From Candidatus Moraniibacteriota bacterium (GTDB lineage Bacteria > Patescibacteriota > Minisyncoccia > Moranbacterales > UBA2206), in the NCBI GenBank assembly GCA_049304095.1, contig JBAQNU010000029.1, positions 98,222 to 162,221 on the forward strand: DNA of 64,000 bases, written 5' to 3'. Shown piece by piece: positions 5,970 to 58,404 of this stretch (position 1 is its first letter; each line of letters starts with the position of its first letter). The notes beneath the pieces are model-generated. The model saw nothing but the letters and a program-made list of their open reading frames with translations. It was not told the origin of the DNA and made no database searches. The position numbers were made by a program, and so were the translations under genes.

Positions 5970-5978
5970 GTTCTAGCT

Positions 5979-6080: not shown

Positions 6081-6437
6081 ATGAAAAAGTTTACTCTTAT
6101 TATTGGTCCAGTGGGGATTTTCGATCGAAAGACAGAAAAACTTCGGAAAAAAGCGGAATCAGTAGTAAAAATTCATTATGATGGGTCAATAATTGAAGAC
6201 CATGGGTCTAGGCGCTGGATGGGCCATAACTGGATGACTTGGCAAAAAGAAGAGATTAAAAGTCTCATAATTGAACCGATTGTGGTGTTTGTGGGTTTTG
6301 CGAGTTGTTCTTGCTGTACGAAGTATGAAACATGGGACATGGTAGTTGAATTAAGTAAGGATTTGAAAAAAATGGGGAAAAGAGTTTCTTTTATTGATAA
6401 CAATAATAATAAATCTGTATTTAGAAAGAGGAGGTGA
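6081..6437 (+). CDS. hypothetical protein (variable cargo of module 2)
   Basis: ORF with an SD. Cys-rich CSCC motif. No recognised domain. Confidence 0.4.
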   Translation: MKKFTLIIGPVGIFDRKTEKLRKKAESVVKIHYDGSIIEDHGSRRWMGHNWMTWQKEEIKSLIIEPIVVFVGFASCSCCTKYETWDMVVELSKDLKKMGKRVSFIDNNNNKSVFRKRR

Positions 6438-6682
6438 TTGAAAAATAAAGGTTTTTGGGAAGTTTATCCTTGGCCACCACGGCCAAAAAACTTCCCACAT
6501 TTTCTCGAGTTCGTCTGAAGTTTCAGGCGGATTCAAGCGAAATGAAGTTCATTAAAAATCAAATATCAGCTAAGGCCCTCTCCAGAATTATTTCGGAGGC
6601 TGTCAGGCAGTAATGTCTGATGTATCAAAGAGTGGAGCTACACTGGCTGAAAAATAGTTTTTGTAGAAAAAGGAGTTTGAAA

Positions 6683-7129
6683 ATGAGTGGAAGAGACAAA
6701 ATTACAGAACAGTTGGCCTCTAATGGTGTAAGTATGGATGAGATTCGGAGTAACTTTGAAGGTCTTATTAGGTGTTATCGCAACAATGAGTTTAGGAGCG
6801 ATTACTCCTTCGTGGAAATAAAAGTGGTAGAGAAAAAAGAATTTGGGTGGGTAGTTTTAATTGAAGATTACTCAAACCAAACATCATGCACTGTTGTAAG
6901 GTCTGAGCTGTTTGTCGTAAGCGAGGGAAAAATAATATCAAAAAGCAAACGAGTTTTTGTGGGGGTATGGAATAAGTGTCCAAAAGAGTGGACACTGGAA
7001 TCGATTTCAGAAACCGATGACGCTTTCATCGTTATCGGGAAGCCTTTTGGAAAGGAGGTGTTGAAAAAATCGGATAAGTTTTTTCCGCGTTGCCCACTTT
7101 CAGGCAAGTGGGAAGAGTTCTTTGTTTAA
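6683..7129 (+). CDS. hypothetical protein
   Basis: ORF. Start chosen at the ATG after the AAAGGAG SD. Confidence 0.4.
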   Translation: MSGRDKITEQLASNGVSMDEIRSNFEGLIRCYRNNEFRSDYSFVEIKVVEKKEFGWVVLIEDYSNQTSCTVVRSELFVVSEGKIISKSKRVFVGVWNKCPKEWTLESISETDDAFIVIGKPFGKEVLKKSDKFFPRCPLSGKWEEFFV

Positions 7130-17124: not shown

Positions 17125-17901
17125 TTGGCGACAAGTAATATTATGCTTGAAAAAGAACTGCAAAATGCTGGTTTAAGCGAGCGAGAATCTAAGGTATATT
17201 TGACTTGTCTTGAAATGGGGGAGACGAGCATCGCAAAATTGGCCAAAAAAGCCCAAATAAAGAGGACAACAGTCTATCTTTTAATTGGATCTCTGCAAGA
17301 AAAGGGCCTTATTGGCCTCATCAAGAAAGGCAATAAGACTTTGTATATTTCGGAGGATCCACGTAAAATTGCAGAAAAGATGGAGCAGAGGAAGTCAGCT
17401 ATTGAAAAGATTTTGCCAGAATTATTGTCGATGACGAATTTTACTAACATAAAACCGCGTATAAAGTATTTTGAAGAAAAGCGGGCGGTTGAAGATGTAT
17501 ATCGAGATACGCTGCTATATCCTGATCAAGAAATACTTTCTTGGTTTCCCGCCCTGCTTGTCCAGGATGATAAAGATTTTTTTAATGATTATTATATTAA
17601 AAAAAGACTAGAGAAAAAGATTTGGGTGAAGGCGATTGCGCCTGACACTGTGGATATGCGAGAATATTTCAATCGCGACAAAACAGAATTGCGTCAAACA
17701 AAACTAATTTCTCAAGATATCTTTAATATTGAAGTTGGAATTTTGCTTTATGGAAAAAGTAAAGTAGGAATTGTATCCTATGAAGAAGGCATGGGACTTA
17801 TCATTGAAAGCCCAAAAATTTATAAAAGCTTAAGAAATATTTTTGACCTGGCGTGGAATTCGTTGCCGGAAAATAAACAACAGCAATCTATTGTTGAATA
17901 A
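17125..17901 (+). CDS. TrmB-like HTH transcriptional regulator (paralog 3)
   Basis: N-terminal LSERESKVYLTCLEMGETSIAKLAKKAQIKRTTVY. Confidence 0.6.
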   Translation: MATSNIMLEKELQNAGLSERESKVYLTCLEMGETSIAKLAKKAQIKRTTVYLLIGSLQEKGLIGLIKKGNKTLYISEDPRKIAEKMEQRKSAIEKILPELLSMTNFTNIKPRIKYFEEKRAVEDVYRDTLLYPDQEILSWFPALLVQDDKDFFNDYYIKKRLEKKIWVKAIAPDTVDMREYFNRDKTELRQTKLISQDIFNIEVGILLYGKSKVGIVSYEEGMGLIIESPKIYKSLRNIFDLAWNSLPENKQQQSIVE

Positions 17902-23656: not shown

Positions 23657-24436
23657 ATGGAACATTTGATTGAACCACTGAAAAACTTAGGACTAAGCGA
23701 AAAAGAAGTGCTGGTCTATCTGGCATTACTTCAACTTGGCTCAGCGACGCCCTATCAGGTTGCCAAAAAATCGGGGATTAAAAGGCCAACAGCCTATGTG
23801 ATTGCGGAAGAATTGGTAAAAAAAGGTTTGGTTGTGCATATTCCTGGCGAAGAAAAAAAGCGCTATATTGCCAAAAACCCGGATGCTTTTTTTGAAGAGC
23901 AAGAAGAAAAACTGGCAATGGCGAGAAAAATCTTGCCAGAACTGCGCTCATATCAGAAAAATGTGGCGGAAAAACCGAGCATATTGTATTTCGAAGGGCT
24001 TGAGGGATTGCATCAAGCCTATGAGTATCGGCAGAAAGAGCTGCATGGAAGGGAGATCGTGGGATTTTTTGCATCTAATGAGGACTCAACGCCTGAAGTG
24101 ACGCAGTATTTTGTGAAATGGAATGAATATCGAGAAAAACATAATACGCCGGTGCGGGGAATTACAGTCGATGCGCCGGAGCTTTTGCCTTATGCTAAAT
24201 TTTTTGGAGAAGGCGTGGGAGCTATGACACTTAAATTTTTGCCTCGCAATATGTATGGTTCTAAAATTTCCATCGAATCTTGTGATAATCAATTTGTGCG
24301 CATATTCCTTTTTGAAAGCGTGGAAACGCTAATTATTGAGTCGCCAAAATTTGCAGTGGCCGTAAAAGAAATCTTTGAATTAGTCTGGAAATCGACGGAG
24401 GGGAAATATGAAAAGCCGGCGACGTGGGTTAGGTAG
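23657..24436 (+). CDS. TrmB-like HTH transcriptional regulator (paralog 4)
   Basis: LGLSEKEVLVYLALLQLGSATPYQVAKKSGIKRPTAY. Confidence 0.6.
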   Translation: MEHLIEPLKNLGLSEKEVLVYLALLQLGSATPYQVAKKSGIKRPTAYVIAEELVKKGLVVHIPGEEKKRYIAKNPDAFFEEQEEKLAMARKILPELRSYQKNVAEKPSILYFEGLEGLHQAYEYRQKELHGREIVGFFASNEDSTPEVTQYFVKWNEYREKHNTPVRGITVDAPELLPYAKFFGEGVGAMTLKFLPRNMYGSKISIESCDNQFVRIFLFESVETLIIESPKFAVAVKEIFELVWKSTEGKYEKPATWVR

Positions 24437-33982: not shown

Positions 33983-34010
33983 TTATCTATTAGCCATAGG
34001 TTCAATTTTT

Positions 34011-34694
34011 ATGAGAAAAGATAAAGTCAAAGCGCTAGCGCTTAGAAAAAAAGGTTTTAGCTATAATGAAATTAGCAAAAAACTAGAAGTTCCTAAAAGC
34101 ACGCTAAGTTATTGGTTGGCAGATGTAGTAATTTCACAAAAAGCGAAAAACAGAATTGCAAGTAGGGTTTTTGCAGGAAGTGTGAAGGGGCTGATTGAGA
34201 GAAATAAAAATCAAACGGCACTAGCGAAAGAAAGAGCAAAAGCTATTCGAGAAATTGCAAAGAAAGAAGTTAGAAATTTAATGAAAAACAAATTATTTTT
34301 GGTGGGCATTTCCCTGTATTGGGCGGAGGGATATAAAAAGGGTGCTTATGGAAGTAAATGGAAAGCAGTGGATTTTGCCAATTCCGATCCTGAGTTAGTG
34401 AAAATAATGATGAATTTTTTCAGAAAAGTTTGCAGAGTAGAAAGTGAAAAGATAAAAGTTCAGCTAATTGCTCATAAAAATATTGATATGGACGAAGCGG
34501 TGAGCTATTGGTCTGGGCTTATGAAATTATCGAAAAGTCAGTTCATGAAAACAAGTTGTGCGGTGAGTAGCGCGAGCAAAGGCAAGAGAAACAAAAACAG
34601 TTTGACGCACGGAACAGTTCATATTAGGATAAATGATGTAAGGCTATTTTTTCGGATTATTGGCTGGATCGATGGATTGAAGTTGTATATATAG
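34011..34694 (+). CDS. HTH-containing protein with a single LAGLIDADG-like motif (LFLVGISLYWAEGY); candidate free-standing homing endonuclease
   Basis: N-terminal HTH (GFSYNEISKKLEVPKSTLSYWL). Motif resembles the LAGLIDADG core. Position next to the intron-containing tRNA. Confidence 0.35.
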   Translation: MRKDKVKALALRKKGFSYNEISKKLEVPKSTLSYWLADVVISQKAKNRIASRVFAGSVKGLIERNKNQTALAKERAKAIREIAKKEVRNLMKNKLFLVGISLYWAEGYKKGAYGSKWKAVDFANSDPELVKIMMNFFRKVCRVESEKIKVQLIAHKNIDMDEAVSYWSGLMKLSKSQFMKTSCAVSSASKGKRNKNSLTHGTVHIRINDVRLFFRIIGWIDGLKLYI

Positions 34695-34742
34695 CTTATA
34701 GTTATTGTTTTTGGCGGGCTTGCCCGCCGAAGCGTAGCATAG

Positions 34743-34814
34743 GCGGGTATCGTATAGTGGCTAATATACGTCCTTGCCAAGGACGAGCGACGGGTTCGAT
34801 TCCCGTTACCCGCT
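34743..34814 (+). tRNA. tRNA-Gly (GCC), discriminator U
   Basis: GCGGGTATCGTATAGTGGCTAATATACGTCCTTGCCAAGGACG...GGTTCGATTCC. D-stem has a G10-U25 wobble. Confidence 0.7.
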
Positions 34815-34953
34815 CAAGATGGCAGAAGCGACTCTTTTTTGGGTCGTTTTTGCTTTAGATAAGTCAAAAGTATCCAGTTCGAGAAAAGTCGAGGACGGTC
34901 CTCGATTTTTTATACTGCTTTACGCTAGATTTATGCTATAATTGACCAAATAT

Positions 34954-35568
34954 ATGAAAATACTGATAGCAACCCATAATCAATCAAAGTTCAAGAGATA
35001 TAAAAAAATCTTAGAAGCTATCGATTTTATCGAGCCAGTGTCATTGGCTGATTTGGGTATTACTGAAAAAGTTGAAGAAAATTATTTAACAAATGTTGAA
35101 AATGCCTTGTTTAAAGCTAGAAGTTATGGAAAAATGTCTGGCCTTATAACTGTGGCAGTGGATGAGGCTTTGATGACAAATTTCTTGCCAGACAATGAAC
35201 AGCCAGGCGTTTATGCCAGAAGATTTGCCAAAGACAAGAAAGAATTAACCGATGTTGAGCTGATTGATGTTTGGAAAGAAATATTTAAACTATACCCACA
35301 AGAGGACAAACAATTTATTTGGAATTTTGCAGTGGCCTATTTTAATCCACGCAATAATTCGGAAGGCGTAGAATGCATTGAAGGAATATCGCATATTGCA
35401 AAATACTTTTCTGCTCTCAAGACAAGTGGTTATCCGATGTCGACATTGTTATCTTCAGCAAAAGACGGAAGGCCGTATATTGAAATGAGCCAAGATGAAA
35501 AATATAAAAAAGACAAGATTAATTTCAAACACTTCATCAGAATATTTAAGGAATGGTTAGAAAAATAA
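34954..35568 (+). CDS. rdgB: non-canonical purine NTP pyrophosphatase (Ham1/RdgB family)
   Basis: KILIATHNQSKFKRYKKIL, YLTNVENALFKAR and PGVYARRFA align with the RdgB motifs. Stop is 4 nt before the RT start. Confidence 0.65.
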   Translation: MKILIATHNQSKFKRYKKILEAIDFIEPVSLADLGITEKVEENYLTNVENALFKARSYGKMSGLITVAVDEALMTNFLPDNEQPGVYARRFAKDKKELTDVELIDVWKEIFKLYPQEDKQFIWNFAVAYFNPRNNSEGVECIEGISHIAKYFSALKTSGYPMSTLLSSAKDGRPYIEMSQDEKYKKDKINFKHFIRIFKEWLEK

Positions 35569-35572
35569 ATAT

Positions 35573-37072
35573 ATGGCAAAAAATGTATTAAATTTAAATC
35601 AAAAAAGTGCAAAAAAATTCTTTCTTAGTCAAGAATGTTATTTGAACATCGAATTGCCGCCATATTTTAAGTTTGATGAGTTGCTTGCAGAAGTTGACAA
35701 CGAATCAAATTCGTTGATATTAAGCGAAAAAGATTTAAAGAAAGCGAAGAAAAATGAAACAATAAATCATATTTTATATGGCAACAAGGATGGTAAATAT
35801 GCTTGGAGAAAATATGAAATTATAAACCCACTGATGTATGTATCGCTGGTAAACGTTATTACAGAAAAGGATAATTGGGATTTTTTAAAAAATAGATTTA
35901 ATGAATTTCAAAAAGATAGCAATATAGAATGCGAAAGCATCCCAGTTTTAGCTGGCACTAAATCAAAACAAAGAGCATCTCAGATTTTACGCTGGGTCAA
36001 TAGAATTGAAAAAAGGTCACTTGCACTAGCGTTGGAATATAAGTATTTATATCAAACAGATATTTCTGATTGTTATGGTTCTATATATTCTCATTCATTG
36101 CCTTGGGCCATACATACCAAAGAAACATCGAAAAATAATAGGGGCTTCAATGGTTTGTTTGGAAATAAGATTGACCAGCACATACAAGCTATGTCTTATG
36201 GAGAAACAAATGGCATACCGCAAGGGAGCACTTTAATGGACTTTATAGCAGAAATTGTTCTTGGTTATGCGGATATGCAATTGTCAGATAAATTAAAAAA
36301 AGAATTAAGGGAAAAGAAGTTTCATATTTTGAGATATAGAGATGATTATAGAATTTTTGTAAACGATGTTGCTGACGGGGACATTATTTTAAAGTGCTTG
36401 AGTGAAGTTTTATTAAACTTAGGATTCAGATTGAATGCCAATAAAACATCCTTTAGTGATGATGTTATTGGCGGGTCAATAAAAAAAGATAAAATTGACG
36501 AATTACGAATAGAGGAAACACCGAAAAAGTTATCCAAAAAGGGACTACTTAGACAATTGCTTATAATTCAACAACTGGGTAAGCAATTTCCTAATTCTGG
36601 AACAGTAGTTAGGCGACTCTCTCACATTTTGGATAATGTTAAACCAAAGGATTTTTATTTGCAAGAGAAAATAATAGTAAGTGTGCTTGCTGATATAGCC
36701 TATAACAACCCAAACTCCTTTCCTCTTGTGGCTGGTTTAGTTTCAAGCTGTATCGCCAAGGTATCAAAAAAAGAGAAAGGGGAGCTGTTAATTTCAATAC
36801 AAAAAAAGGTTTGCTTGCTTCCAAATGCTGGCCTTTTGGAAATATGGACGCAAAGGATAGCTCTTGGAATAAAACTTAAATTGGAATTAAATGAAAAACT
36901 TTGTTGTTGTGTTTACGACTCAAATTTTAAGATATTCGAAACGAATTGGATAGAATATCCCAGAATTAAGGCTATTATAGACGACGGTTCTTATGTTGAT
37001 ATGGATAAAATAGAGAAACTTAAGCCGATAATAAGCAATAAAGAAGTCCAAATATTTACTTATGGCGGTTAA
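35573..37072 (+). CDS. reverse transcriptase, defence-associated/Abi-UG type (RT domain plus alpha-helical C-terminal extension)
   Basis: RT motif A DISDCYGSIY, motif B-prime GIPQGSTLMDFIAEIVL, motif C RYRDDYRIF and a downstream NANKTSF. No retron VTG. No DGR SQ motif. Confidence 0.75.
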   Translation: MAKNVLNLNQKSAKKFFLSQECYLNIELPPYFKFDELLAEVDNESNSLILSEKDLKKAKKNETINHILYGNKDGKYAWRKYEIINPLMYVSLVNVITEKDNWDFLKNRFNEFQKDSNIECESIPVLAGTKSKQRASQILRWVNRIEKRSLALALEYKYLYQTDISDCYGSIYSHSLPWAIHTKETSKNNRGFNGLFGNKIDQHIQAMSYGETNGIPQGSTLMDFIAEIVLGYADMQLSDKLKKELREKKFHILRYRDDYRIFVNDVADGDIILKCLSEVLLNLGFRLNANKTSFSDDVIGGSIKKDKIDELRIEETPKKLSKKGLLRQLLIIQQLGKQFPNSGTVVRRLSHILDNVKPKDFYLQEKIIVSVLADIAYNNPNSFPLVAGLVSSCIAKVSKKEKGELLISIQKKVCLLPNAGLLEIWTQRIALGIKLKLELNEKLCCCVYDSNFKIFETNWIEYPRIKAIIDDGSYVDMDKIEKLKPIISNKEVQIFTYGG

Positions 37073-37135
37073 TTTCAGATAAATCCTTTGTTCATAAGCC
37101 CAGTTCTAACCGTATTAACTAAGTAGCTCAGATAA

Positions 37136-37172
37136 AACAAAAATCTCCATCAATGGAGATTTTTGTTTTTTT
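37136..37172 (+). terminator. rho-independent terminator (AAATCTCCAT-CAA-TGGAGATTT TTGTTTTTTT)
   Basis: Read directly after the RT gene. Confidence 0.65.
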
Positions 37173-37346
37173 GCGGTAGTTTTTCGAAATGGAGATGGTC
37201 TTATTCAAAAAAATGCTTTTCCGTTGGCATGTTAATTCGGCCTAGGACCGTCTTCGATTTTTTGACTAAAGTTGACTTTTCTACATATCAATCCCATTTC
37301 CACAAGTGTATTATAAAAAATTAGCTCCCAATGTTATAATTGAATT

Positions 37347-38087
37347 ATGAATATGGCAATAAATTGTGGCTTTGAGGATAAGGGAGAAACAACCTGGTTT
37401 TTTCGACTAAGTCATAATGAGAAACGTGAATTATTTTTTTGGATACTGTGGGATAAAATAAAACCCTCTTATTTTTTTGATGGGCTAGATAATAGCGAGC
37501 AGGATATAAAAAATATCGATCATATCTCATTCCATAAGGACGGAACAATTCATATTCGATTTTATGATCAGTCGAGTAATGCTGAAAAGATTATTCATAC
37601 AAAACTCGTGAATACTATCCTAGGAATGGAACAAGATAAATATGGACCTCTTTTGACAATATCCATCTATGACTCAAATCTATTTAAAAAATTTATTGGA
37701 AAAGATAATCCAGTGGTTTTTAATAAATTTCAGCATACTCAATTGAAATGGGATATTGAGGGAATTGAAAAATTCAGCCTTGTGTTCTTTTTGGTTGGTG
37801 GACATATAAATCACAGATTGATGTTGGAGAAAAATTTCCCCGGTATGTTTAATATGGGTGCCTCCCCGTATTTAATGAACTTCTTTGGAGATGATAGCAA
37901 GCTTGAGATGGAAAATGGAGAAGTTAGAAAAGTTAATGATCTAGGGTTATTGGTGGCGTTTACAACAAAAACCATTCCGCGACCTCCCAAAGAAGCTATA
38001 ACCGGCACAAGGAAGTTTGATTGGATTGAAATTCCATTAGGCATAAATATAACTCCCTCTGATGAAAAAATAAGGAGAATGACTTAA
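37347..38087 (+). CDS. hypothetical protein, third gene of the AT-rich RT island
   Basis: ORF only. AT-rich. Confidence 0.4.
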   Translation: MNMAINCGFEDKGETTWFFRLSHNEKRELFFWILWDKIKPSYFFDGLDNSEQDIKNIDHISFHKDGTIHIRFYDQSSNAEKIIHTKLVNTILGMEQDKYGPLLTISIYDSNLFKKFIGKDNPVVFNKFQHTQLKWDIEGIEKFSLVFFLVGGHINHRLMLEKNFPGMFNMGASPYLMNFFGDDSKLEMENGEVRKVNDLGLLVAFTTKTIPRPPKEAITGTRKFDWIEIPLGINITPSDEKIRRMT

Positions 38088-42511: not shown

Positions 42512-42650
42512 AGCAATGAGAAATTGATGTATAATGGGTCTAGGATAAGCGAAATTTGGTTTTGGTGTCACTTTGTGGTTGACGGGCGTTAGGTGACTAT
42601 TCGGCGATGTAGTGCATAATAGGCATAATTTTTTATTAAAAAATATTTTT

Positions 42651-43397
42651 ATGGAACAAGAACTATTAGCTTTGGGGCTGACTTGGAATGAAGTTAAAGC
42701 ATATAAGAGTCTTATGAAACTGGGCGAGACGCAAGTTGGTGGAATTATCACTGATCTCAAGATTCATCGCCAGATTGCCTATAACGCCCTTGACGCACTG
42801 GAAAAGCGCGGGATGGTGACGAAAACGAGCAAGAACAAAGTTCAACATTATAAAATAGTCGATCCAGAAGTGATTGTGGAAAATGTCAAAAAGCAGGAAG
42901 TTTTGGCAGAAAGGTTGGCGCGGACGATCAAGCACGAGATGAAAAAAAGTCGGCATGAGCATGAAATTAGTCTCTATAATGGCCGAGAAGCGGCTCGGCG
43001 ATTTTTTATCCAGTCATTTAAGAAATTCCCAGTTAGCGCTACTACCTACATCATGGGGGTGCCCGTTAATGACTATACTGAAGCAATGGGGGCGGATTTT
43101 CTGGCTGGCCCCTATAATAAGATTCGCAATCAGAGAGATATCCGTTCTCGATTACTGGTAAGTGAGAGAATGCGTGAGGAAAACAAGGACTATGAAAAGC
43201 TAGTTAATCCGGTTTTGCGCGAGACACGCTATTTGCCCTATCAAGTACTCAATCCAATCTCCACTCTCATTTGGGAGGATCACATTTCTTTTATTTCTAT
43301 AAAGCCAGAATTCTTTATTATTGATATTTTGAGCCAAGCTTTTCGGGACTCGTATAAGGAGCATTTTGATATGCTCTGGAAGATGGCGAAAAAATAG
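42651..43397 (+). CDS. TrmB-like HTH transcriptional regulator (paralog 5, most divergent)
   Basis: LGLTWNEVKAYKSLMKLGETQVGGI..IHRQIAY. Same overall length and layout. Confidence 0.45.
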   Translation: MEQELLALGLTWNEVKAYKSLMKLGETQVGGIITDLKIHRQIAYNALDALEKRGMVTKTSKNKVQHYKIVDPEVIVENVKKQEVLAERLARTIKHEMKKSRHEHEISLYNGREAARRFFIQSFKKFPVSATTYIMGVPVNDYTEAMGADFLAGPYNKIRNQRDIRSRLLVSERMREENKDYEKLVNPVLRETRYLPYQVLNPISTLIWEDHISFISIKPEFFIIDILSQAFRDSYKEHFDMLWKMAKK

Positions 43398-44177: not shown

Positions 44178-44789
44178 TTATTTTTCTTCTTTTTCAATTT
44201 TTGCAATAATCTTCGGAATCCGTTTGAAATCTTTGATCAGTGTTTCGCGCATTCCGCCATTATAGAGCGCCGCGGCGGGGTGGTAGAGAGTATAGAAAAC
44301 CTGCCTACCGGCAGGCAGGCCTGGCTTGCCCATGCCTTCAATTTCTCGGCGCATGGCTTTGCCGTGGACTTCGGAAATCTTGAATCCGGGTAAAAATCTT
44401 TCCATGGAATGGCGGCCGAGAGTGACGATTAATTTTGGCTGGATGATTTCAATTTGCGCAAGAAGCCATGGCCAGCAAGTGGAGATTTCTTCGGGCAGTG
44501 GGTCGCGATTTTCCGGTGGGCGACATTTACAGACATTGGCGATGTAGACGTCTTCGCGTTTGAGCTTGATCGCGTCCAGCATTTCGTTCAAGAATTTTCC
44601 AGCTGATCCAATAAAAGGCATGCCAGTTTCGTCCTCTTTTTTTCCAGGCGCTTCGCCAATAAACATAATTTTCGCGCTCTCTGATCCAGCGCCAGGGACG
44701 ACCTGAATGCAACCTTTGCGCAAAGCACATTTGGTGCAGGCGAACATTTCCGCGTTTAGTTTTTCGAGTTGGTCTTTTTTGGATTCCAT
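44178..44789 (-). CDS. uracil-DNA glycosylase, family 4 (Fe-S)
   Basis: CTKCALRKGC...IMFIGEAPGKKEDETGMPFIGSAGKFL. Confidence 0.8.
   Translation of the reverse strand: MESKKDQLEKLNAEMFACTKCALRKGCIQVVPGAGSESAKIMFIGEAPGKKEDETGMPFIGSAGKFLNEMLDAIKLKREDVYIANVCKCRPPENRDPLPEEISTCWPWLLAQIEIIQPKLIVTLGRHSMERFLPGFKISEVHGKAMRREIEGMGKPGLPAGRQVFYTLYHPAAALYNGGMRETLIKDFKRIPKIIAKIEKEEK
44299..44318. repeat. GC hairpin element copy (CCTGCCTACCGGCAGGCAGG) lying in-frame inside the UDG gene
   Basis: Encodes the GKPGLPAGRQV segment of the ORF. Confidence 0.4.
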
Positions 44790-46330: not shown

Positions 46331-47152
46331 TCAACCTCTAAATTTATTAAGAAGGTTAACATCTTCTATTATTTTATCGTGTTCAGTTTCCAAAATCATA
46401 TCAATGTTATTCTTACTTGCAAATGCGACAATATCGAGGAAAGCCTTCTCTCCAATCCTGCCTTCTCCGATATGGGCGTGGCGGTCGCGCTTGGAATCAA
46501 ATTCGGTCAAACTGTCGTTGGCGTGGATTAGTTTTATATTTTCCAAGCCTAACTCTTGGTCGATTCTTGCAATTGTTTTTTTGAAATCTTGCCAATCATA
46601 GCCAGAAGCGAAAGAATGTTGAGTGTCGAGACAAATTCCGGCGATGGATTTATTGTTTATGCCATCAATAATGGTTTTCAAATCTGCTAGTGAACTGCCG
46701 ATGATTTCTCCGGCTCCGGCGCTGTTTTCCAAAAGCAACTTTGTCGATCCAGAATAATTTTCTAGAGTCTTTTTTAACATGTCAATCACTTTTTGGATTG
46801 ATTCGTCGTGCGTCATGCCTTTAGCGGAGCCAAGATGTGTCATTACATATTTTGCACCAATCAGTGTGCCACGCTCCAATTCGTCTCGAACGATACTTAC
46901 CGAACCGTAGCGGATTTTGTTATCTAGTGAAGCGAAGTTGATATAATACGGTGTGTGAATGAAAGTATTTTGTATTTTAAATTTTTTGGATAAAGTTTTA
47001 AATTCATTACAAATTTCTGGTGTGAGTTCAGGCGCTTTTCCGCCACGTGGTGAGCGAGTGAAAATTTGCATCACTTCGCAACCCAAAACGCTTGCGCGTT
47101 CTGGTGCGTTTTGGATTCCGCCAGCGATGGAGATGTGGGCGCCTATGTTCAT
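46331..47152 (-). CDS. nfo: endonuclease IV (AP endonuclease family 2)
   Basis: IGAHISIAGG ... FIHTPYYINFAS ... HLGS ... HANDS. Confidence 0.8.
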   Translation of the reverse strand: MNIGAHISIAGGIQNAPERASVLGCEVMQIFTRSPRGGKAPELTPEICNEFKTLSKKFKIQNTFIHTPYYINFASLDNKIRYGSVSIVRDELERGTLIGAKYVMTHLGSAKGMTHDESIQKVIDMLKKTLENYSGSTKLLLENSAGAGEIIGSSLADLKTIIDGINNKSIAGICLDTQHSFASGYDWQDFKKTIARIDQELGLENIKLIHANDSLTEFDSKRDRHAHIGEGRIGEKAFLDIVAFASKNNIDMILETEHDKIIEDVNLLNKFRG

Positions 47153-47349: not shown

Positions 47350-48309
47350 CTACTCTATCTTCCACCCATTTTCCGTCTCGACAATTTTACCTTTAATTTC
47401 AAAGCCGGATGCGAGGGTGTGGCCGCCTCCGCCGAACTGGGCGGCGAGAGTGGAAACATTGACGCCTTTATATTTCTCAGAGCGAAGACTGCCCTTGATG
47501 ATGCCGTCGCCTCGTTCAGAAAGAATGAGGGCGAATTTTGTGCCGGGGACGGTGTTGAGGATGGTGGCGACTTGAGCGATGTCTTCACTAGTTGCGCCAA
47601 AATCAGCCAAATCTTTTTGAGTCAGCACTGAAACAATCATGCCGTTACTTTCATTGATACGTGCCCGCTCAAAGGCGCGACCCCATAATTTCAAAGTGGA
47701 GATTTTTTTGCTATTAAATGTGGCGTTGATGATTTTGCTCATGGGAGCGCCTTTTTTCATGAGCGCGGAGATGATTTCCAGAACGTGAGAAGTGGTGTTG
47801 GAATGTTGGAGCATGCCGGTGTCGTTTAGAATGCCGAGCATCAGATAGGTGGATATGCTTTGCGTGATTTCAATGTCTTGCGAGCTCAAGAAATTGTAGA
47901 TTAACTCACAAACGGAAGAATATTCGGAATCGATAATGGTGATGTCAGCGCTAAGTGTAATATCAGGATGATGATCGATGACAGCGGTAATTTGATCTGG
48001 ATTGAGACGAGAAAAAATTTTTTCAAAACCACGTTCCACGCTATCCGCAGCGATGATTAGTTTATATTTTTTCAAATCCAATTTTTCTGGGTCGAGGAAT
48101 ATTTCGCTGGAAAAGGATGCGAGGTAATCAGGGAGTGGGTCGTAGCAGGCAATGTCAGCAGTTTTGCCAAGTTTTTTGATATATTCTTTGAGCGCCAAAA
48201 CTGACCCGACGGTGTCTCCGTCGGGGCGCGAATGAGCAAAGAGTAGGATTGAATCACAGCCCTTGATTGCGTAGTTTAGGGTGTGAAATTCATGAAAGAA
48301 ATTTTGCAT
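47350..48309 (-). CDS. nrnA: DHH/DHHA1 phosphoesterase (NrnA-like bifunctional oligoribonuclease/pAp phosphatase)
   Basis: FAHSRPDGDTVGS DHH motif. GGGH DHHA1 motif. Confidence 0.75.
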   Translation of the reverse strand: MQNFFHEFHTLNYAIKGCDSILLFAHSRPDGDTVGSVLALKEYIKKLGKTADIACYDPLPDYLASFSSEIFLDPEKLDLKKYKLIIAADSVERGFEKIFSRLNPDQITAVIDHHPDITLSADITIIDSEYSSVCELIYNFLSSQDIEITQSISTYLMLGILNDTGMLQHSNTTSHVLEIISALMKKGAPMSKIINATFNSKKISTLKLWGRAFERARINESNGMIVSVLTQKDLADFGATSEDIAQVATILNTVPGTKFALILSERGDGIIKGSLRSEKYKGVNVSTLAAQFGGGGHTLASGFEIKGKIVETENGWKIE

Positions 48310-51918: not shown

Positions 51919-53298
51919 ATGCGAAACAAATGGAAAATCTTTTTAGGCGGACTTTTGGCACTGAGTTTTTTTGTGCTCATTTCCGGTTGTGGTTGCAAGC
52001 CAGTGACGCAAAAATATACGGTAGATCTGGAAGTCTGGGGACCAGTGGATGATACGGATAGCTATGCGGAGATTTTCAATAACTATCGAAAGCTCAATCC
52101 TAACGTAGGCAATATTGTTTATAAAAAACAAAGAATTGAAACTTACCAGCAGGATTTGATTGATGCCCTGGCTTCAGGCAATGGTCCGGATATATTTTTG
52201 ATGCACAATGACTGGCTGGCCAATTTTTCTAACAAAATCGCCCCTGCGCCAAAAGATATTTTGACTGAGCAAAAATTCCGTCAAAATTTTGTGGATGTGG
52301 CGGTAACCAACTTTGTTTCAGAGGGAAATATTTTTGCTGTTCCGCTTTCGGTCAATTCGCTTGCGCTTTTCTATAATAAAGACTTGTTTAATGCGGCTGG
52401 CATTGCATTGCCTCCTCAAACTTGGGATGAATTTGTGGAAGATGCTGTGAAGCTAACAAGGATTAACTCAAATGGAGAATTAACGCAAGCTGGCGCAGCA
52501 ATTGGCACGGCCTACAACATTAATCGTTCAACGGACATCCTCAATCTTTTGATGTTGCAAAATGGCCTCTCTATGGTGGACGCCACGGGTCGGTTGAATT
52601 TTGGTCGGGAAGCGGGAGCAAAAACGGCATTGGAATTCTATGCGCAGTTTGCCAAAAGCAATTCGGGAAAATATGTTTGGAATCCGACACTGCACAATTC
52701 CATTGATGCTTTTTCGGAAGGGATGCTTGGCATGATGCTCAACTATTCCTGGCAGATAGCGACGCTTCGTAATAAATCACCCAAACTTAATTTTGCTGTT
52801 TCCGGCGCGCCTCAATTTCCCGGAGTTACTCCTGTGAACTTTGCTAATTATTGGGCCTATGGCGTGGCGAAAAATAAAGCGACAAATGCAAATGCTGCCC
52901 CCACGCAAGCAGCGCCAGTGTCAAATGATTTGCGCATTGCTGAGGCTTGGAAGTTTTTGACTTATCTCACCACCAAAGGTGAACCGCAGACAGCTCAGGC
53001 GACCGCGACAACTGGAGTGGGACGCGTGTTTGATCCGAATTTTGATCCGGCCGAAAACTATTTGAAAAAAACCAATCAGCCTTCAGCGCGTCGAGATTTG
53101 ATTGAACGGCAAAAAAGTGATCCAGAATTGGGTGTATTTGCGCAGGGTAACCTCATCGCCAAGGATTGGCAAAAAGACAACCCGCTACTTGTGGAAACAG
53201 TTTTTGCTGAGATGATTGACGCAGTAAATCGCGGAATGCTTTCCATTTCCGACGCCGTGAGTGGCGCGGAAAAGAAATTGACAAAAACAGGTTATTAA
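51919..53298 (+). CDS. lipoprotein, ABC-transporter solute-binding protein family 1 (sugar-type)
   Basis: Lipobox LISGCGC. SBP-like composition. Confidence 0.55.
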   Translation: MRNKWKIFLGGLLALSFFVLISGCGCKPVTQKYTVDLEVWGPVDDTDSYAEIFNNYRKLNPNVGNIVYKKQRIETYQQDLIDALASGNGPDIFLMHNDWLANFSNKIAPAPKDILTEQKFRQNFVDVAVTNFVSEGNIFAVPLSVNSLALFYNKDLFNAAGIALPPQTWDEFVEDAVKLTRINSNGELTQAGAAIGTAYNINRSTDILNLLMLQNGLSMVDATGRLNFGREAGAKTALEFYAQFAKSNSGKYVWNPTLHNSIDAFSEGMLGMMLNYSWQIATLRNKSPKLNFAVSGAPQFPGVTPVNFANYWAYGVAKNKATNANAAPTQAAPVSNDLRIAEAWKFLTYLTTKGEPQTAQATATTGVGRVFDPNFDPAENYLKKTNQPSARRDLIERQKSDPELGVFAQGNLIAKDWQKDNPLLVETVFAEMIDAVNRGMLSISDAVSGAEKKLTKTGY

Positions 53299-53317: not shown

Positions 53318-54085
53318 ATGCAAAATAAAAAATATTTTTTTGGTTTGGCGGTTTCGATGGTTGCTTTTTTGGGAGTTTTTGGATTGAGGAGCGAGGCTGG
53401 AGCGGCAAATGTTGGATGTTATGATGCTATTGCTGGATCTTGCAATGAATTAGATAAAAGCGGGGGTGCTACATGTAGCTCTCCTGCTACCTGGTGCGCG
53501 AGTGATGCCAGGTGTAACGGTACTGTCTGTGCTTCAACCACCATCCCAACTTCTGGTACTCAGACTCCGACCGAATTTACCAATCCACTCGGATTTAGTT
53601 CAATCGACGGTGTGCTGACGAGTCTTTTGGGATCGCTTAAGGGTTTTGTGGTAATTTTGGCGATTATTTTTATTGTAATCGGCGGAATTATGTATATGCT
53701 GTCCGCCGGAGATCCAAAGATGGTCGAGCAAGCAAAAAAAAGCTGGCTCTATGCGGTGATTGGTCTGGCTATTGTGGTTGCAGCGCCGACATTTCTCAAA
53801 CAAGTGCAAGAAATTTTGGGTGGAACTTTGACCGGTGGAGGAATCGAAACTGCGCGTAGCGTGAAAGATATTGCTAATGGAATTTTGAAATTTCTCTTGT
53901 CGATTACGGGAATCATTGCTATAATCAGTTTAGTGATTGCTGGTGGAATGTATATGACAGCTTATGGCGAAGAAAAACAAATCACCACAGCAAAAAGTAT
54001 TGGAAAGTGGGCGATTGTGGGCATCGTTGTGGCGCTCGGTTCGCTCACCATCATCCAGCAAGTTTCCAAATTGATTACTGGTTAG
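53318..54085 (+). CDS. TrbC/VirB2-like (T4SS-pilin-type) membrane protein with Cys-rich N-terminal domain and two pilin-like modules
   Basis: Signal peptide. Cys-rich ectodomain. Duplicated motif LxxIxGxIAIIxxVIAGxMYMxAxGEEKxxxxAK. Confidence 0.5.
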   Translation: MQNKKYFFGLAVSMVAFLGVFGLRSEAGAANVGCYDAIAGSCNELDKSGGATCSSPATWCASDARCNGTVCASTTIPTSGTQTPTEFTNPLGFSSIDGVLTSLLGSLKGFVVILAIIFIVIGGIMYMLSAGDPKMVEQAKKSWLYAVIGLAIVVAAPTFLKQVQEILGGTLTGGGIETARSVKDIANGILKFLLSITGIIAIISLVIAGGMYMTAYGEEKQITTAKSIGKWAIVGIVVALGSLTIIQQVSKLITG

Positions 54086-54131
54086 AGTTAGGGATAAAAA
54101 TAAAATTATAAAATAGAATGGAGGTGTTGAA

Positions 54132-54491
54132 ATGAAAAACAAAATTAAATTAGCAGGTTATTCAGTGCTTTCTGTTGCGATGACTTTTCCAGCTGTTGCT
54201 TTTGGCGCTTTTGATCCGAACGTTGGTGGTGCTACTGGTTTGCCAAAAAGCTCTCTGATGGATATTATCAGCAACATCATGCAATGGCTTCTCACAGCAG
54301 TGGGTATTGCTGGCGTGATTGGATTTGTGATTGCAGGCCTTCTCTACCTCACCGCAGCGGGAGATGAAAAGAAAATCGCAACAGCCAAACAAGCCATGCT
54401 CGCTTCTATTATCGGTGTGATCGTGGCGATTGCTGGAGTTGTTGCTCTCAACGTGGCGAAAAGTTTGCTCGGAGGAACGCAAAATTTCTAA
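54132..54491 (+). CDS. TrbC/VirB2-like pilin paralog
   Basis: Signal peptide plus ISNIMQWLLTAVGIAGVIGFVIAGLLYLTAAGDEKKIATAKQAM. Confidence 0.5.
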   Translation: MKNKIKLAGYSVLSVAMTFPAVAFGAFDPNVGGATGLPKSSLMDIISNIMQWLLTAVGIAGVIGFVIAGLLYLTAAGDEKKIATAKQAMLASIIGVIVAIAGVVALNVAKSLLGGTQNF

Positions 54492-54515
54492 CAAATATTT
54501 TTTTGAAATTTCAAA

Positions 54516-54548
54516 AACCACTCCAAGATCGGGGTGGTTTTGTTTTTG
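54516..54548 (+). terminator. rho-independent terminator
   Basis: CCACTCC...GGGGTGG followed by a T-run. Confidence 0.5.
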
Positions 54549-54595
54549 ATTTTTTTTGTGCTATAATTTTTGTATAATAAATTAAACTTAAAAAA

Positions 54596-54961
54596 ATGAC
54601 AAAAAAAATCATTTCCACAATTAGTCTGGGCGCAACATTTTTATTTGTGTCTGCGCAAAAAGTTTTTGCTGATTGGGCTGCTGGCATGAATGCAGCAGGA
54701 AGTTATGGTCTTCCAGAGGCGAGACTTTCTACGATCATTGCTAATATTCTCGATTGGCTGCTCACAATTGTGGGTGTGGTGGGGGTAATTGGTTTTGTGA
54801 TTGCTGGCATCATGTATCTCACGGCTAATGGAGATGAGAAAAAAATCGGGGACGCTAAAAAAGCCATGATGGCTTCCATCTATGGAGTGCTTGTAGCGAT
54901 TTGTGGCATGGTGGTGCTTTGGGCAGCGACAAATATATTGAGTGGAACACCTTTATTTTAA
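54596..54961 (+). CDS. TrbC/VirB2-like pilin paralog
   Basis: IANILDWLLTIVGVVGVIGFVIAGIMYLTANGDEKKIGDAKKAM. Confidence 0.5.
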   Translation: MTKKIISTISLGATFLFVSAQKVFADWAAGMNAAGSYGLPEARLSTIIANILDWLLTIVGVVGVIGFVIAGIMYLTANGDEKKIGDAKKAMMASIYGVLVAICGMVVLWAATNILSGTPLF

Positions 54962-54975
54962 GTTCTAAAAACAAT

Positions 54976-55659
54976 ATGCAAAACAAAACAAAAATATTAT
55001 TCAGTTCAGTCGCGATTTTTATGTTCAGTTTTCTTTTGGCGGGAGAAGTGATGGCCGGTTCTTGTGAGGACATTACCGGACAACTTTGCAAAGCTAATGA
55101 CTGTGACTCCTATGGCATGGATGTTGCCACCCCTGCTTCTGCTTTCACTTGCGATCCCAGTTTTGTTTGTTGCAAACCAAGGCCCAGCAACACAGGCGTT
55201 CAAGATTATTGTGTTAATTTAGCCGATGGCGAGGCTTGCCTTACATTTAATAGCGAACCGGGCACTTGTAGGAATAAAACGTGTATTGCTACTGATGGAG
55301 GAGATGGTGGTGCTGGCGGAGAGGATAATAGTGGCGACAGTAGCGGTGGTGGTGGAGGAGGTAATGGTGCCTCTGGTTGGAGTTCAAATGATTTGCGCAT
55401 TTTTAATTTGCCAGAAGCGCCGGTTTATATGATTATAACTAATATTCTCGACTGGCTACTCACGATTGTGGGAGTTATCGCGCTCATTACGCTTGTTATT
55501 GCTGGTATGCAATATTTCTTTGTGGCGACAGATGAAAAAATGCTAGAGACAGCTAAAAAAACCATGCGCGCAGCAATTATTGGAATTGTTGTGGCTCTTT
55601 CTGGCATGGTGGTAATTTATGCGGTGGAAGGCATTCTCACGGCGCAGCCACTTTTTTAA
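54976..55659 (+). CDS. TrbC/VirB2-like pilin paralog with Cys-rich plus Gly-rich ectodomain
   Basis: Start at MQNKTKI. 12 Cys then a GGDGGAGGEDNSGDSSGGGGGGNG linker. C-terminal pilin module. Confidence 0.5.
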   Translation: MQNKTKILFSSVAIFMFSFLLAGEVMAGSCEDITGQLCKANDCDSYGMDVATPASAFTCDPSFVCCKPRPSNTGVQDYCVNLADGEACLTFNSEPGTCRNKTCIATDGGDGGAGGEDNSGDSSGGGGGGNGASGWSSNDLRIFNLPEAPVYMIITNILDWLLTIVGVIALITLVIAGMQYFFVATDEKMLETAKKTMRAAIIGIVVALSGMVVIYAVEGILTAQPLF

Positions 55660-55670
55660 TCTTAAAAAAT

Positions 55671-56405
55671 ATGCAAAACAAAACAAAAATATTTTTAGTG
55701 GTGATGGGGGTTTTGGGGTTTGGAGTTTTTTGGAGTGGGGATGTGCTTGCAGCTGATTGTGTTTGTGGAAGTGCTAATAACCAATCATCTGTAAATGCCC
55801 CGACAACTAATCTTTGTTCCACTGGAACGGCATCCTCTATTGATACCGAGGATGCTATTAGGTGGGAGTGGACTTGTATTGGAGACTCTTGTGGAACAGT
55901 TAGTTGTTCTGCGACAAAAGCGGTAGATCTGAACGCCTGTGCTTGTGGAAGCGCAAATGGACAGTCATTTGCTACGACGCCAACAAGCAATCTTTGTTCC
56001 ACTGGAACAACTTCTTCTGTTACTGGATCAGGACCTTGGACTTGGAGTTGCACGGGAAGTTGTGGTGCTTCTGCTAGTTGTTCTGCTAACAAAACTGGCA
56101 CAACACCAACTCCCGGAACTGGAATAGAAATCCCGACTGATACAGGGCTTCCAGCTAATACTGGTCTAGTGAAAGGAATTCTCACTAATGTGGCTAATTG
56201 GCTTTTGGGCATTATTGGTATTATTGCTATTATTGGTTTTGTAATTTCTGGATTGCAATATTTTCTAGTTGCAACAGACGAGAAAATGCTCGAAACGGCC
56301 AAAAAAACCGCCCAAGCTTCGGCAATCGGAATCGCCGTGGCGCTTTCGGGTTATATTGTCATCGCCGCGATTGAAAAAATCCTCAAAGGCACGAGTTTGT
56401 TTTAG
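55671..56405 (+). CDS. TrbC/VirB2-like pilin paralog with an internal tandem Cys-rich repeat
   Basis: Two ~50-aa repeats (CVCGSANNQS...LCSTGTASS... / CACGSANGQS...LCSTGTTSS...). C-terminal pilin module. Confidence 0.5.
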   Translation: MQNKTKIFLVVMGVLGFGVFWSGDVLAADCVCGSANNQSSVNAPTTNLCSTGTASSIDTEDAIRWEWTCIGDSCGTVSCSATKAVDLNACACGSANGQSFATTPTSNLCSTGTTSSVTGSGPWTWSCTGSCGASASCSANKTGTTPTPGTGIEIPTDTGLPANTGLVKGILTNVANWLLGIIGIIAIIGFVISGLQYFLVATDEKMLETAKKTAQASAIGIAVALSGYIVIAAIEKILKGTSLF

Positions 56406-56429
56406 TTTTTTAACTTTTTTAGGAATTAA

Positions 56430-56467
56430 AAAAGACCGTTGCATTTGTGCATTACGGTCTTTTTTAT
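56430..56467. terminator. bidirectional rho-independent terminator (AGACCGT...ACGGTCT)
   Basis: Hairpin flanked by an A-run and a T-run between convergent genes. Confidence 0.6.
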
Positions 56468-56495
56468 CACCTCCTTTCAATGAAGTTTGTGATTG

Positions 56496-57668
56496 TTATT
56501 TTCTTGTGAGAATAATTTCTCTTGTGCCAGGCGGAGGGAAAAAGCACTGTGTTGTTTCTTGCAACACAAGCATCTCTCCTCCTGTAGCTCGGGTTCCTGT
56601 TTCAAGTATTTCTCGAACACGGGTTTCCCTGGGATGCACTTTCCATTCGCCTACTTGAATCCTTTCGGAGTAGGGTTTGTTGCCATTGACAGGTATTATA
56701 TATCTGTCAATCCTGCTTCTACCTCCAGGCTGAGCGATACCTTGATGAGCGGTGCTCGGATTTTTTTTCTGCATTTCGACTTGGAGACGCAGTTCTTCCA
56801 GGCGTTGTTTTCTGGCGATTTCATCAGCCTCGAGTTTTGCTTTAGCCGCCTCAGCTGCGTCAGTCTTGGCTTTCTCGCCACTAATAATCTTCAAGAAGTT
56901 TTCCCAAGCTTTTTCTGAAGCTATTTTTGTTTCATCAGACACGCCGGGGGTCAACTTCTTTGGAAAACGATAAGAAATCTCATCTATCATTCCGTTTCCA
57001 AGAAAGGCAAGAAGAATGAAGAATGAAATACCGTAAAATATTTTGCTCCGTTTCCAGACTGCGAAAATGAATGTCGCAAGGAATAAAACGAAAATTCCAT
57101 AGAGACGTTCATTTTTTAGACCTTCGACCGTTGGGAAAAATGCTTTTCCAATAATGCCCATGTCGCTGACTTGATGTTCTTGATAAAAAAGAAACATCCA
57201 AGCAACAATCAAGATACCAGACGAAAATCCCAAAAACGACTTCATTCGTCCATTGGTAGTAGCATCAATTTGGATCATGCCATAAATACCAGCAGCCGCG
57301 AAAAGTGGCAGGCCGACGACAGCCCAATTGAATACGCTGTCGATTTTTCCGATCAGGATGATTAAAATCAATCCTGCCATGGCCGCTAAAGACCATGCTA
57401 GATATGGGCGGTCTCTCGAAATGACGGCGGCGGTAATCAGCCCGCCGATCATCAAAATCCAGATTCCGTTGTCAACTGATCCAGCTCCTGCTGATGTGCC
57501 AGAAGCACAAGAGCGGAAACCGGTGATCGCAATTAAGGAAAAAAACAACATAGTGCAGATCCTCGTAATCGTGTCTGCAGAAAGACCAGTTAAAGTTGCA
57601 ATGCGGTTACGTGCTACAAACACACCAACCAGGATAGTCAGTACAACTATTACTATAAAAGTTACCAT
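56496..57668 (-). CDS. polytopic membrane protein with charged/coiled C-terminal domain (possibly a T4SS VirB6/TrbL-like partner)
   Basis: About 8 TM helices then EAAKAKLEADEIARKQRLEELRLQ. Confidence 0.35.
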   Translation of the reverse strand: MVTFIVIVVLTILVGVFVARNRIATLTGLSADTITRICTMLFFSLIAITGFRSCASGTSAGAGSVDNGIWILMIGGLITAAVISRDRPYLAWSLAAMAGLILIILIGKIDSVFNWAVVGLPLFAAAGIYGMIQIDATTNGRMKSFLGFSSGILIVAWMFLFYQEHQVSDMGIIGKAFFPTVEGLKNERLYGIFVLFLATFIFAVWKRSKIFYGISFFILLAFLGNGMIDEISYRFPKKLTPGVSDETKIASEKAWENFLKIISGEKAKTDAAEAAKAKLEADEIARKQRLEELRLQVEMQKKNPSTAHQGIAQPGGRSRIDRYIIPVNGNKPYSERIQVGEWKVHPRETRVREILETGTRATGGEMLVLQETTQCFFPPPGTREIILTRK

Positions 57669-57690
57669 GAAAAGCCTCCTTTTCTTGATT

Positions 57691-58404
57691 TTAGCTTAAA
57701 ATCCAGATTATAAATTGAATAACTGCCCATGGGACCATAACTGTTCCAATGAGAATCTCAATCCGAAATTTTTTCAAAACGTGAATTTTTGGCAAGAGAT
57801 TTCTGCGGAGTGCACGTTTTTTTTGTCTTTCATAAACCGTTCCTTCCGCGTTATCACCTGTTACTTTTTCTGCTAATAATTCGGACAAAAAAGCTTCGGC
57901 AGAATCATTGATGGTTATCTTCTGGAAAGACAACCTTTCTGTCTGTTTGGCTTCAGGCGAGGGATTTTTGCTTTGCTCTATGAATCTTCTCCGAAGTCCA
58001 ACTAGATTAATGATATATCGAATGGGATCATAGATGCCTTCTTTGTCTAGATTCTCTTCGAACTCTTCTGCTACGGTTTTTGCATCTGGTTCTGGATGAG
58101 AGTCTTTTATTTGGCTATACTCATCATCATCATCGTGAGTCATACCTGGAAAAGCTTCCATAAGCCAGATTGGCATTTGTTTTTCTGATGTTTCTCCTGG
58201 TTGCTGTTGATTGCCTCCTTGGTTTGGTCTTCTGAGACCAAGGGTAACCAGGAAAAGCAACATTGCATTTTCCATGGCCTCCATGATAATTGGCGTGATC
58301 CATCTTTTCTTGGTTGGCGCTTCGGGCTGATTTGCCTTAGACGTAGCTTCTGCGGGATTTTCCTCTGCCGGTTTTCCTGTATCCTTCTGATTTTTTCTAG
58401 CCAT
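57691..58404 (-). CDS. hypothetical protein with C-terminal TM anchor
   Basis: ORF only. Confidence 0.35.
   Translation of the reverse strand: MARKNQKDTGKPAEENPAEATSKANQPEAPTKKRWITPIIMEAMENAMLLFLVTLGLRRPNQGGNQQQPGETSEKQMPIWLMEAFPGMTHDDDDEYSQIKDSHPEPDAKTVAEEFEENLDKEGIYDPIRYIINLVGLRRRFIEQSKNPSPEAKQTERLSFQKITINDSAEAFLSELLAEKVTGDNAEGTVYERQKKRALRRNLLPKIHVLKKFRIEILIGTVMVPWAVIQFIIWILS

Follow-up and report, generated by a model that had tools for sequence, protein, structure and literature searches.

A tandem array of VirB2-like pilin paralogs with cysteine-rich ectodomains in Moranbacteria

A 64-kb stretch of DNA (the window) from Candidatus Moraniibacteriota bacterium (Patescibacteria) contains an array of five adjacent genes, g1-g5, at positions 53318-56405 of the + strand. 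The genes are predicted to encode secreted VirB2-family two-helix membrane proteins, three of which carry extracellular cysteine-rich domains that diverge strongly between species. The reading that we favor, with a probability of roughly 60%, is that the five proteins are VirB2/TrbC-like pilin paralogs of a type IV secretion system (T4SS) whose other genes would lie outside the window, where g2 would be the major subunit and the others minor or display subunits. The genes of the array are as follows.

53318-54085, + strand: g1, 255 aa, a tandem double pilin, in which a signal peptide and an ectodomain of ~60 aa with 6 Cys precede two copies of the VirB2-like two-helix module (four transmembrane [TM] helices)
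54132-54491, + strand: g2, 119 aa, a short pilin without Cys, candidate major subunit
54596-54961, + strand: g3, 121 aa, a short pilin
54976-55659, + strand: g4, 227 aa counted from the ATG, with 10 Cys in the ectodomain, followed by a linker rich in Gly and Asp and by the module
55671-56405, + strand: g5, 244 aa, with two tandem 6-Cys beta repeats (12 Cys in the ectodomain), a disordered linker and the module

All five genes are co-directional, and the spacers between neighbors measure 11-104 bp. For g4, the mechanical open reading frame (ORF) begins at a TTG at 54901, upstream of the ATG at 54976. As read from the sequence, the N-termini of g1-g5 combine an n-region rich in K and N with a hydrophobic core and a site of the A-x-A type. 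The proteins end in a module of ~80 aa, in which two hydrophobic helices are separated by a short charged loop (G/T-D-E-K). The copies of this module are alignable throughout and have 29-63% identity to that of g3, the highest value being shared by g2. The original prediction, made from the DNA alone, had described a common C-terminal module in all five genes and its duplication in the first, and both descriptions were confirmed, the two modules inside g1 being 36% identical (E 3e-11). It had also pointed to a tandem Cys repeat, which is found in g5 as two units of ~55-60 aa with six Cys each and 52% identity (E 2e-15), and to near-identical starts of two genes, which correspond to the first 23 bases shared without change by g4 and g5. 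The modules of g4 and g5 are 63% identical, and their ectodomains are without similarity. The claim of unrelated Cys-rich ectodomains on three of the proteins was accurate for the 6 Cys of g1 and for the dissimilarity between g4 and g5; the 12 Cys given for g4 were too many, the count being 10.

The ectodomains of g1, g4 and g5 are inserted between a Sec signal peptide and the two-helix module. This layout of a signal peptide followed by a two-helix hairpin would place both termini, and any N-terminal insert, outside the cell.

The family assignment was obtained with profile searches for T4SS_pilin and TrbC, which had been proposed as a check on the two-helix T4SS pilin fold. The Pfam gathering scores are 26.6 bits for PF18895 (T4SS_pilin) and 27.9 bits for PF04956 (TrbC/VirB2). 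All five proteins exceeded the cut-off of PF18895, with 69.7 bits for g1 (in two stretches), 37.6 for g2, 36.1 for g3, 40.8 for g4 and 31.7 for g5. PF04956 was matched above its cut-off by g1 (44.1 bits) and below it by g5 (15.3 bits). The NCBIfam model NF045849 (Mbov_0395 family), which describes a pilin-like conjugal transfer protein of Mycoplasma integrative conjugative elements (ICEs), was matched by g1 with 52.6 bits versus a cut-off of 40; g2-g4 stayed under this cut-off, and g5 was unmatched.

The proteins are small, consist of a charged loop and two TM helices and are encoded in multiple copies, as holins or small bacteriocin or immunity membrane proteins might be, and such families were the example that the original prediction had given of a match that would refute it. 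Scans of the array proteins against PHROGs and PADLOC, however, gave no significant holin, immunity or defense match, whereas the Pfam pilin matches exceed their cut-offs. Signal peptides and large extracellular Cys-rich domains are untypical of holins, and no lysin, toxin or phage gene is adjacent to the array, its neighbors being a solute-binding protein (SBP) gene, nusA and other housekeeping genes. We judge this explanation to be barely credible. A type IV pilus (T4P) pilin reading was also rejected, since the class III prepilin leader (G|F/M-T-L-x-E; PilD-cleaved) is present in none of the five N-termini and none of the proteins matched a T4P Pfam family.

Structure prediction of the Cys repeat, likewise proposed at the outset, returned a beta fold. 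The AlphaFold model of g5 (mean pLDDT 74) starts with a signal helix, which is followed by a pair of small beta repeats (pLDDT 85-92). A linker without order then leads to the hairpin, in which helices 164-200 and 205-238 are joined by a 4-residue loop. When this model was compared with the PDB using Foldseek, nothing was found below E 0.1, and the likenesses to Rib and cyanovirin were weak.

Variation of the array across Moranbacteria

Besides the window, the comparison comprised two close relatives from metagenomes and the loci of 80 species representatives, nearly all of the latter being Moranbacteria, which makes 83 loci in total. The 80 genome loci were collected by scanning genome contigs with an alignment of six module sequences. 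A co-directional array of 2-9 module genes is present in 83 of the 83 loci, most commonly with four or five members. Exactly one double-module gene occurs in 66 of these loci, and every array keeps two to five short members that are free of an ectodomain. In 131 of the 402 pilins, signal peptide and module are separated by an ectodomain that exceeds 40 aa, and in the relatives these domains reach about 350-480 aa. Cysteine accounts for 7.5% of the residues in ectodomains versus 0.65% in modules, and the number of Cys per ectodomain is even in 110 cases and odd in 5. Even counts together with this richness in Cys are the pattern expected of extracellular disulfide-bonded domains.

The 131 ectodomains were distributed by BLAST over 53 clusters, of which 38 are singletons. 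By this clustering, the ectodomain of g1 has no relatives, that of g4 belongs to a type found in 4 loci including the window, and that of g5 to a type found in 7 loci. A homolog search with the g4 ectodomain came back empty, which is a weak negative given that the search also missed the window's own protein. The g5 repeat is also present in non-pilin secreted proteins of other organisms, which points to domain shuffling.

In the closest relatives, where IF-2 is 87% and NusA 80% identical to the proteins of the window, orthologous modules are 59-77% identical. The g1 ectodomain and its orthologs have 28-30% identity, and their lengths of 59, 144 and 161 aa come with 6, 12 and 22 Cys, respectively. 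Between g4 and its ortholog in the close relative L002, identity is 30% in the ectodomain and 59% in the module, and the ectodomains of g5 orthologs are 53-67% identical. The description of the proteins as a conserved module joined to a variable ectodomain is correct between species, and our hypothesis is that change is much more rapid in the ectodomains than in the membrane module. The locus had been called diversifying in the original prediction; this agrees with the g1 and g4 ectodomains, which are not invariant and vary in length and number of Cys, in a comparison that is between species only. Relative to the closest relative (80-87% housekeeping-protein identity), synonymous sites are likely saturated. 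A metagenome scan for strain variants gave nothing closer than 65% identity, and every contig with an identical g2, g3 or g5 proved to be 100% identical in its DNA. Apparent strain differences among these contigs were discarded as gene-calling artifacts.

Some close relatives have insertions within the array or next to it. In L004 (2081-4166), AAA_14/DUF4143 and Bro-N genes stand where g4 would be, and in L002 a DUF559 endonuclease-like gene (6550-6900) lies between the SBP gene and the array. Several metagenome-assembled genomes with typical Moranbacteria pilin loci (L007, L010, L021, L022, L025, L026 and others) are titled "uncultured Bdellovibrionales" or "Bathyarchaeia archaeon," which are probably taxonomic mislabels.

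Expression signals and proposed mechanism

Among the pilin genes of the window, a GGAGG ribosome-binding site is found at g2 only (upstream sequence aatGGAGGtgttgaaATG). The signals identified around g2 and at the end of the array are listed below.

54514-54558, + strand: intrinsic-terminator-like hairpin with an 11-bp stem and a T-run, directly 3' of g2; the g2-g3 spacer folds at -22.8 kcal/mol
54559-54567, + strand: extended -10-like element TGCTATAAT, 29 bp 5' of the g3 start codon, a consensus match only
56428-56465, no strand assigned: hairpin with an A-run on one side and a T-run on the other, in the spacer that separates g5 from the convergent g6 (folding energy of the spacer -24.8 kcal/mol); it resembles a bidirectional terminator

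The same signals were compared in the 48 loci in which the double-module gene directly precedes short pilins (loci L006-L085 were scanned). The g2-type gene, of about 118 aa, is preceded by GGAGG in 32 of these loci, compared with 0 at every other position of the array. A strong hairpin follows this gene in 33 of the 48 loci, with a median folding energy of -18 kcal/mol versus -4 and -7 kcal/mol for the neighbors. A terminator placed 3' of the gene for the major subunit is a known arrangement in pilus operons. The GGAGG site and the terminator, which occur at the g2-type position only, suggest the signature of an abundant major subunit beside low-abundance minor ones, with g2 as the candidate for the former and the other genes for minor or display subunits.

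In the mechanism that we propose, g2, which is short and has a strong ribosome-binding site and a terminator after it, would be the abundant structural subunit, and g1, g3, g4 and g5 would be minor subunits. A VirB4-type T4SS encoded elsewhere in the genome would extract the pilins from the membrane into a filament or conduit consisting mainly of g2. The fused double pilin g1, together with g4 and g5, would show disulfide-stabilized ectodomains on this filament or on the cell surface, where the species-divergent domains may recognize the surfaces of host cells. New ectodomains, of which the g5 repeat may be an example, could be slotted between the conserved signal peptide and the conserved module. 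A further step, which we put forward tentatively and would not expect to hold in full, is that Moranbacteria, whose envelope would be monoderm, assemble a T4SS-type filament out of a g2-type major pilin and have it decorated or capped by minor pilins, the disulfide-rich ectodomains of which would be exchangeable cassettes. The array would then act as a host-range determinant, and the double pilin as a conserved nucleating or anchoring unit.

T4SS machinery and chromosomal setting

The gene content of the window was surveyed with Pfam, which was run on 30 ORFs out of a total of 33 that are non-overlapped, 200 aa or longer and located outside the locus. Two of the other three, at 46331-47152 (AP endonuclease) and 47350-48309 (DHH), were assigned from precomputed Pfam results, and the third, at 44178-44789 (203 aa), was left out. 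Among the scanned ORFs there was no relaxase and no ABC permease or ATPase.

Several observations weigh against a T4SS pilin function. The Pfam survey found no VirB4, VirD4, VirB6 or other T4SS machinery in the 64-kb window, which for the VirB4/VirD4 ATPases bears out the original prediction. Within 10 kb of the array, a conserved VirB4-like gene is missing across the 83 loci, and in most relatives so is any T4SS machinery gene. With no machinery gene nearby, the dependence on a T4SS is suggested by family membership only. A PDB sequence search with the module profile gave no meaningful match, the hairpin part of the g5 model is moderately confident (pLDDT 70-76), and polymerization of PF18895 proteins is backed by neither structure nor experiment. 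The division into major and minor subunits is drawn from expression signals read from the DNA. Finally, ectodomains of 120-350 aa on every subunit might pack poorly in a helical filament of the VirB2 type.

These proteins could instead be membrane-anchored surface proteins that work independently of a T4SS, the PF18895 module being only an anchor or oligomerization unit on which Cys-rich domains are displayed. The lack of T4SS machinery near the array, in the window and in most of the 83 loci, fits this explanation, and the largest ectodomains are easier to reconcile with a surface anchor than with a tightly packed helix. Also in its favor, the module occurs fused to an enzyme domain, as described below. 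Such anchors, however, leave unexplained the short members without ectodomain that every array contains, one of which has signals like those of a major subunit, and a link between the family and virB4 exists in 1135 out of 1948 assemblies of Patescibacteria (PMC12102498). We consider it rather unlikely that the proteins are anchors alone.

The T4SS pilin reading draws support from the setting of the array in relatives. In 12 loci (L082, L008, L020, L026, L041, L045, L050, L064, L067, L068, L073 and L074) the array has a second configuration, in which a Xer-like recombinase, a LysM-CHAP gene, a polytopic protein of ~690 aa and a protein of ~510 aa precede the array, and nusA comes immediately after it. 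These arrays have no double-module gene. The polytopic protein (in L082 at 5068-7125, + strand) has a Cys-rich N-terminus and gives weak, sub-threshold matches to VirB6/TrbL in Pfam and NCBIfam. Elsewhere, an N-terminal T4SS_pilin module is fused to an SLT lytic transglycosylase in a protein of ~360 aa (L007:2374-3459, + strand), which corresponds to VirB1-like chemistry. This fusion gene heads the arrays of L007, L009, L040, L046, L055, L057 and others, where the double-module gene comes last. Both the VirB6-like/LysM-CHAP context and the SLT fusions support a connection of the array with a T4SS.

The window itself contains, at a distance from the array, a LysM-CHAP hydrolase gene (481-1692, - strand) and a Xer-like tyrosine recombinase gene (1820-2761, + strand), which are adjacent and divergent, like the pair of the second configuration. 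There is no open frame for a VirB6-like gene running off the left edge of the window beside the LysM-CHAP gene.

The immediate neighbors of the array are an SBP gene on the 5' side and a convergent gene pair on the 3' side.

51919-53298, + strand: orphan SBP_bac_1 solute-binding lipoprotein gene of the carbohydrate type, with lipobox LISGC (Pfam 5.7e-31), ending 19 bp before g1
56496-57668, - strand: g6, 390 aa, with ~8 TM helices, a long helix (245-302) and a C-terminal beta domain (322-389)
57691-58404, - strand: g7, 237 aa, with hydrophobic segments at 39-57 and 213-231 and a pI of 5.8; upstream of g6 in the same operon

The SBP of the window is only distantly similar to MalE and UgpB. The same gene is the immediate 5' neighbor of the array in 56 of the 83 loci, and in the window it is probably co-transcribed with g1 and might be so with g1-g2. 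The gene order methyltransferase, SBP, array, nusA, tig, clpP is fixed in 56 or more species, and this constant chromosomal position, together with a GC content of the array (0.42-0.44) equal to that of its flanks, argues against a mobile element. Both facts count against the possibility that the array is part or remnant of an ICE and supplies pilins for DNA transfer. In its favor, NCBIfam gives a Mycoplasma ICE model, that of the pilin-like conjugal transfer protein, as its best match, and other parts of the window encode a tyrosine recombinase and a reverse transcriptase. The array does not, however, adjoin a gene for a relaxase, a coupling protein or an integrase, and relaxases are rare in Patescibacteria T4SS loci (PMC12102498). 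An ICE origin is therefore highly improbable in our view.

The reverse transcriptase ORF (RVT_1; 35573-37072, + strand) belongs to a low-GC stretch at 34000-38000 (0.33-0.35 versus about 0.41), in which its neighbor is an HTH protein gene (34011-34694). The stretch could represent a group II intron, a retron or a mobile element of another kind. The window further contains five paralogous genes for TrmB-family regulators, at 2765-3541 (- strand), 4769-5557 (- strand), 17125-17901 (+ strand), 23657-24436 (+ strand) and 42612-43397 (+ strand).

For the convergent pair, neither g6 nor g7 matched a Pfam or NCBIfam family, and PDB sequence searches with each of them gave no meaningful match. It is ambiguous where g6 starts: AAGGAGG stands ahead of the ATG that opens the 390-aa frame, whereas the product in the NCBI record has 351 aa. 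The AlphaFold model of g6 has a pLDDT of 80.5 and a confidently modeled C-terminal beta domain. Foldseek of this model against the PDB gave weak cupin-like matches for the C-terminal domain only (E at least 0.1) and no VirB6. A role of g6 as a VirB6/TrbL channel was considered, and neither a profile nor a fold match was obtained. The 8-TM protein with a coiled-coil tail that the original prediction had described here is recognizable in the ~8 TM helices and the long helix, and its C-terminal beta domain had been missed. The TM-anchored acidic protein was right as to hydrophobic segments, of which g7 has two, and overstated as to charge, g7 being only mildly acidic.

Representative relatives of g6 number 43 among 1.84 billion proteins, and homologs of g7 were found in the loci of 6 other species and in L002. 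A convergent pair composed of a multi-TM protein and then a protein of 220-300 aa lies 3' of the array in about 55 loci and is absent from about 15. The g7 position is elsewhere occupied by unrelated proteins, some of them SPFH/Band 7. Profile-profile tests of the genes at the g6 and g7 positions across loci were for the most part negative or too weak to establish homology (probability 27% for c83/c17 and 9.5% for c50/c49). An iterated HMM for these genes gained more and more members, in which TM composition probably played a part. What links g6 and g7 to the array is positional conservation only, and we regard them as fast-evolving neighbors. Both the SBP gene and the convergent g7-g6 pair belong to the context of the array as conserved neighbors, and the SBP gene is not a proven component of it.

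Comparison with known systems

The array as such is an already known type of locus in Patescibacteria, for which tandem VirB2-like arrays have been published (Wang 2023; Quinonero-Coronel 2025). A total of 441 VirB2 arrays of 2-11 genes were reported in 383 Patescibacteria assemblies, with a mean identity of 25% and a maximum of 54%, an array being defined as at least two VirB2-like genes in tandem or with one non-pilin gene between them (PMC12102498). The five adjacent genes studied here, in a Patescibacteria genome, correspond to this definition. They also show the published divergence of paralogs: their modules have 29-63% identity to that of g3, and full-length values are lower owing to the unrelated ectodomains. 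The 63% of the g2/g3 and g4/g5 modules slightly exceeds the published maximum, which refers to whole proteins. The six-pilin array of Southlakia epibionticum ML1 is essential (PMC10633639, PMC12857230), and the T4SS of Patescibacteria, which is essential in the only species where this has been examined, has been described as completely unknown in its function (PMC11665869).

In the papers that could be searched, we found no description of pilins with ectodomains, of a fused double pilin, of conserved major-subunit signals or of a locus away from virB4 that is fixed across Moranbacteria. For the role of the T4SS and of pilin arrays in Patescibacteria, this locus and its 80-odd relatives offer concrete hypotheses: the g2-type protein would be the structural subunit, and the pilins with Cys-rich ectodomains would be candidate host-recognition subunits. 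If this is true, the genes would be markers of host specificity in an abundant uncultured lineage of groundwater and freshwater, and the first case of VirB2-type pilins with folded display domains. Exchangeable cassettes, if they exist, would amount to modular adhesin display with VirB2 as the scaffold, of which no example has been described for T4SS pili. Should the proteins be membrane anchors alone, they would form an ordinary surface-protein family.

The closest known systems are the VirB2 arrays of other Patescibacteria, which have in common with the present one the PF18895/PF04956 assignment, the phylum, the tandem co-directional paralogs of low identity and the lack of a relaxase. The published arrays were reported to be most abundant in Microgenomatia and Saccharimonadia, whereas the present array belongs to Moranbacteria (Parcubacteria group). 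The ML1 array lies inside a T4SS cluster, in contrast with the housekeeping neighborhood of the array described here, in which no T4SS gene was found in 64 kb. The fused double pilin and the pilins with Cys-rich ectodomains were, moreover, not found mentioned for the published Patescibacteria arrays.

Classical VirB2/TrbC/TraA pilins, such as Agrobacterium VirB2 and F-plasmid TraA, share the signal peptide, the hydrophobic hairpin and the charged loop. They differ in having long leaders and mature proteins of ~70 aa without ectodomains or tandem fusion, and they are encoded in virB/tra operons of diderm hosts. The Mbov_0395 pilin-like protein of Mycoplasma ICEs likewise comes from wall-less or monoderm organisms with small genomes, and its ICE context is not shared here.

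The multi-copy VirB2 of Bartonella and Anaplasma (cited in PMC12102498) is likewise amplified in tandem and divergent in host-dependent bacteria, and has been read as surface variation. That variation lies within the pilin itself, whereas in the present array most of it is located in separate Cys-rich inserts, and a microbe instead of an animal would serve as host. T4P minor pilins, chaperone-usher tip adhesins such as FimH and PapG, and VirB5 have no sequence or fold relation to the proteins of the array. The resemblance that we infer is functional, and consists in the proposed combination of an abundant subunit with scarce binding subunits.

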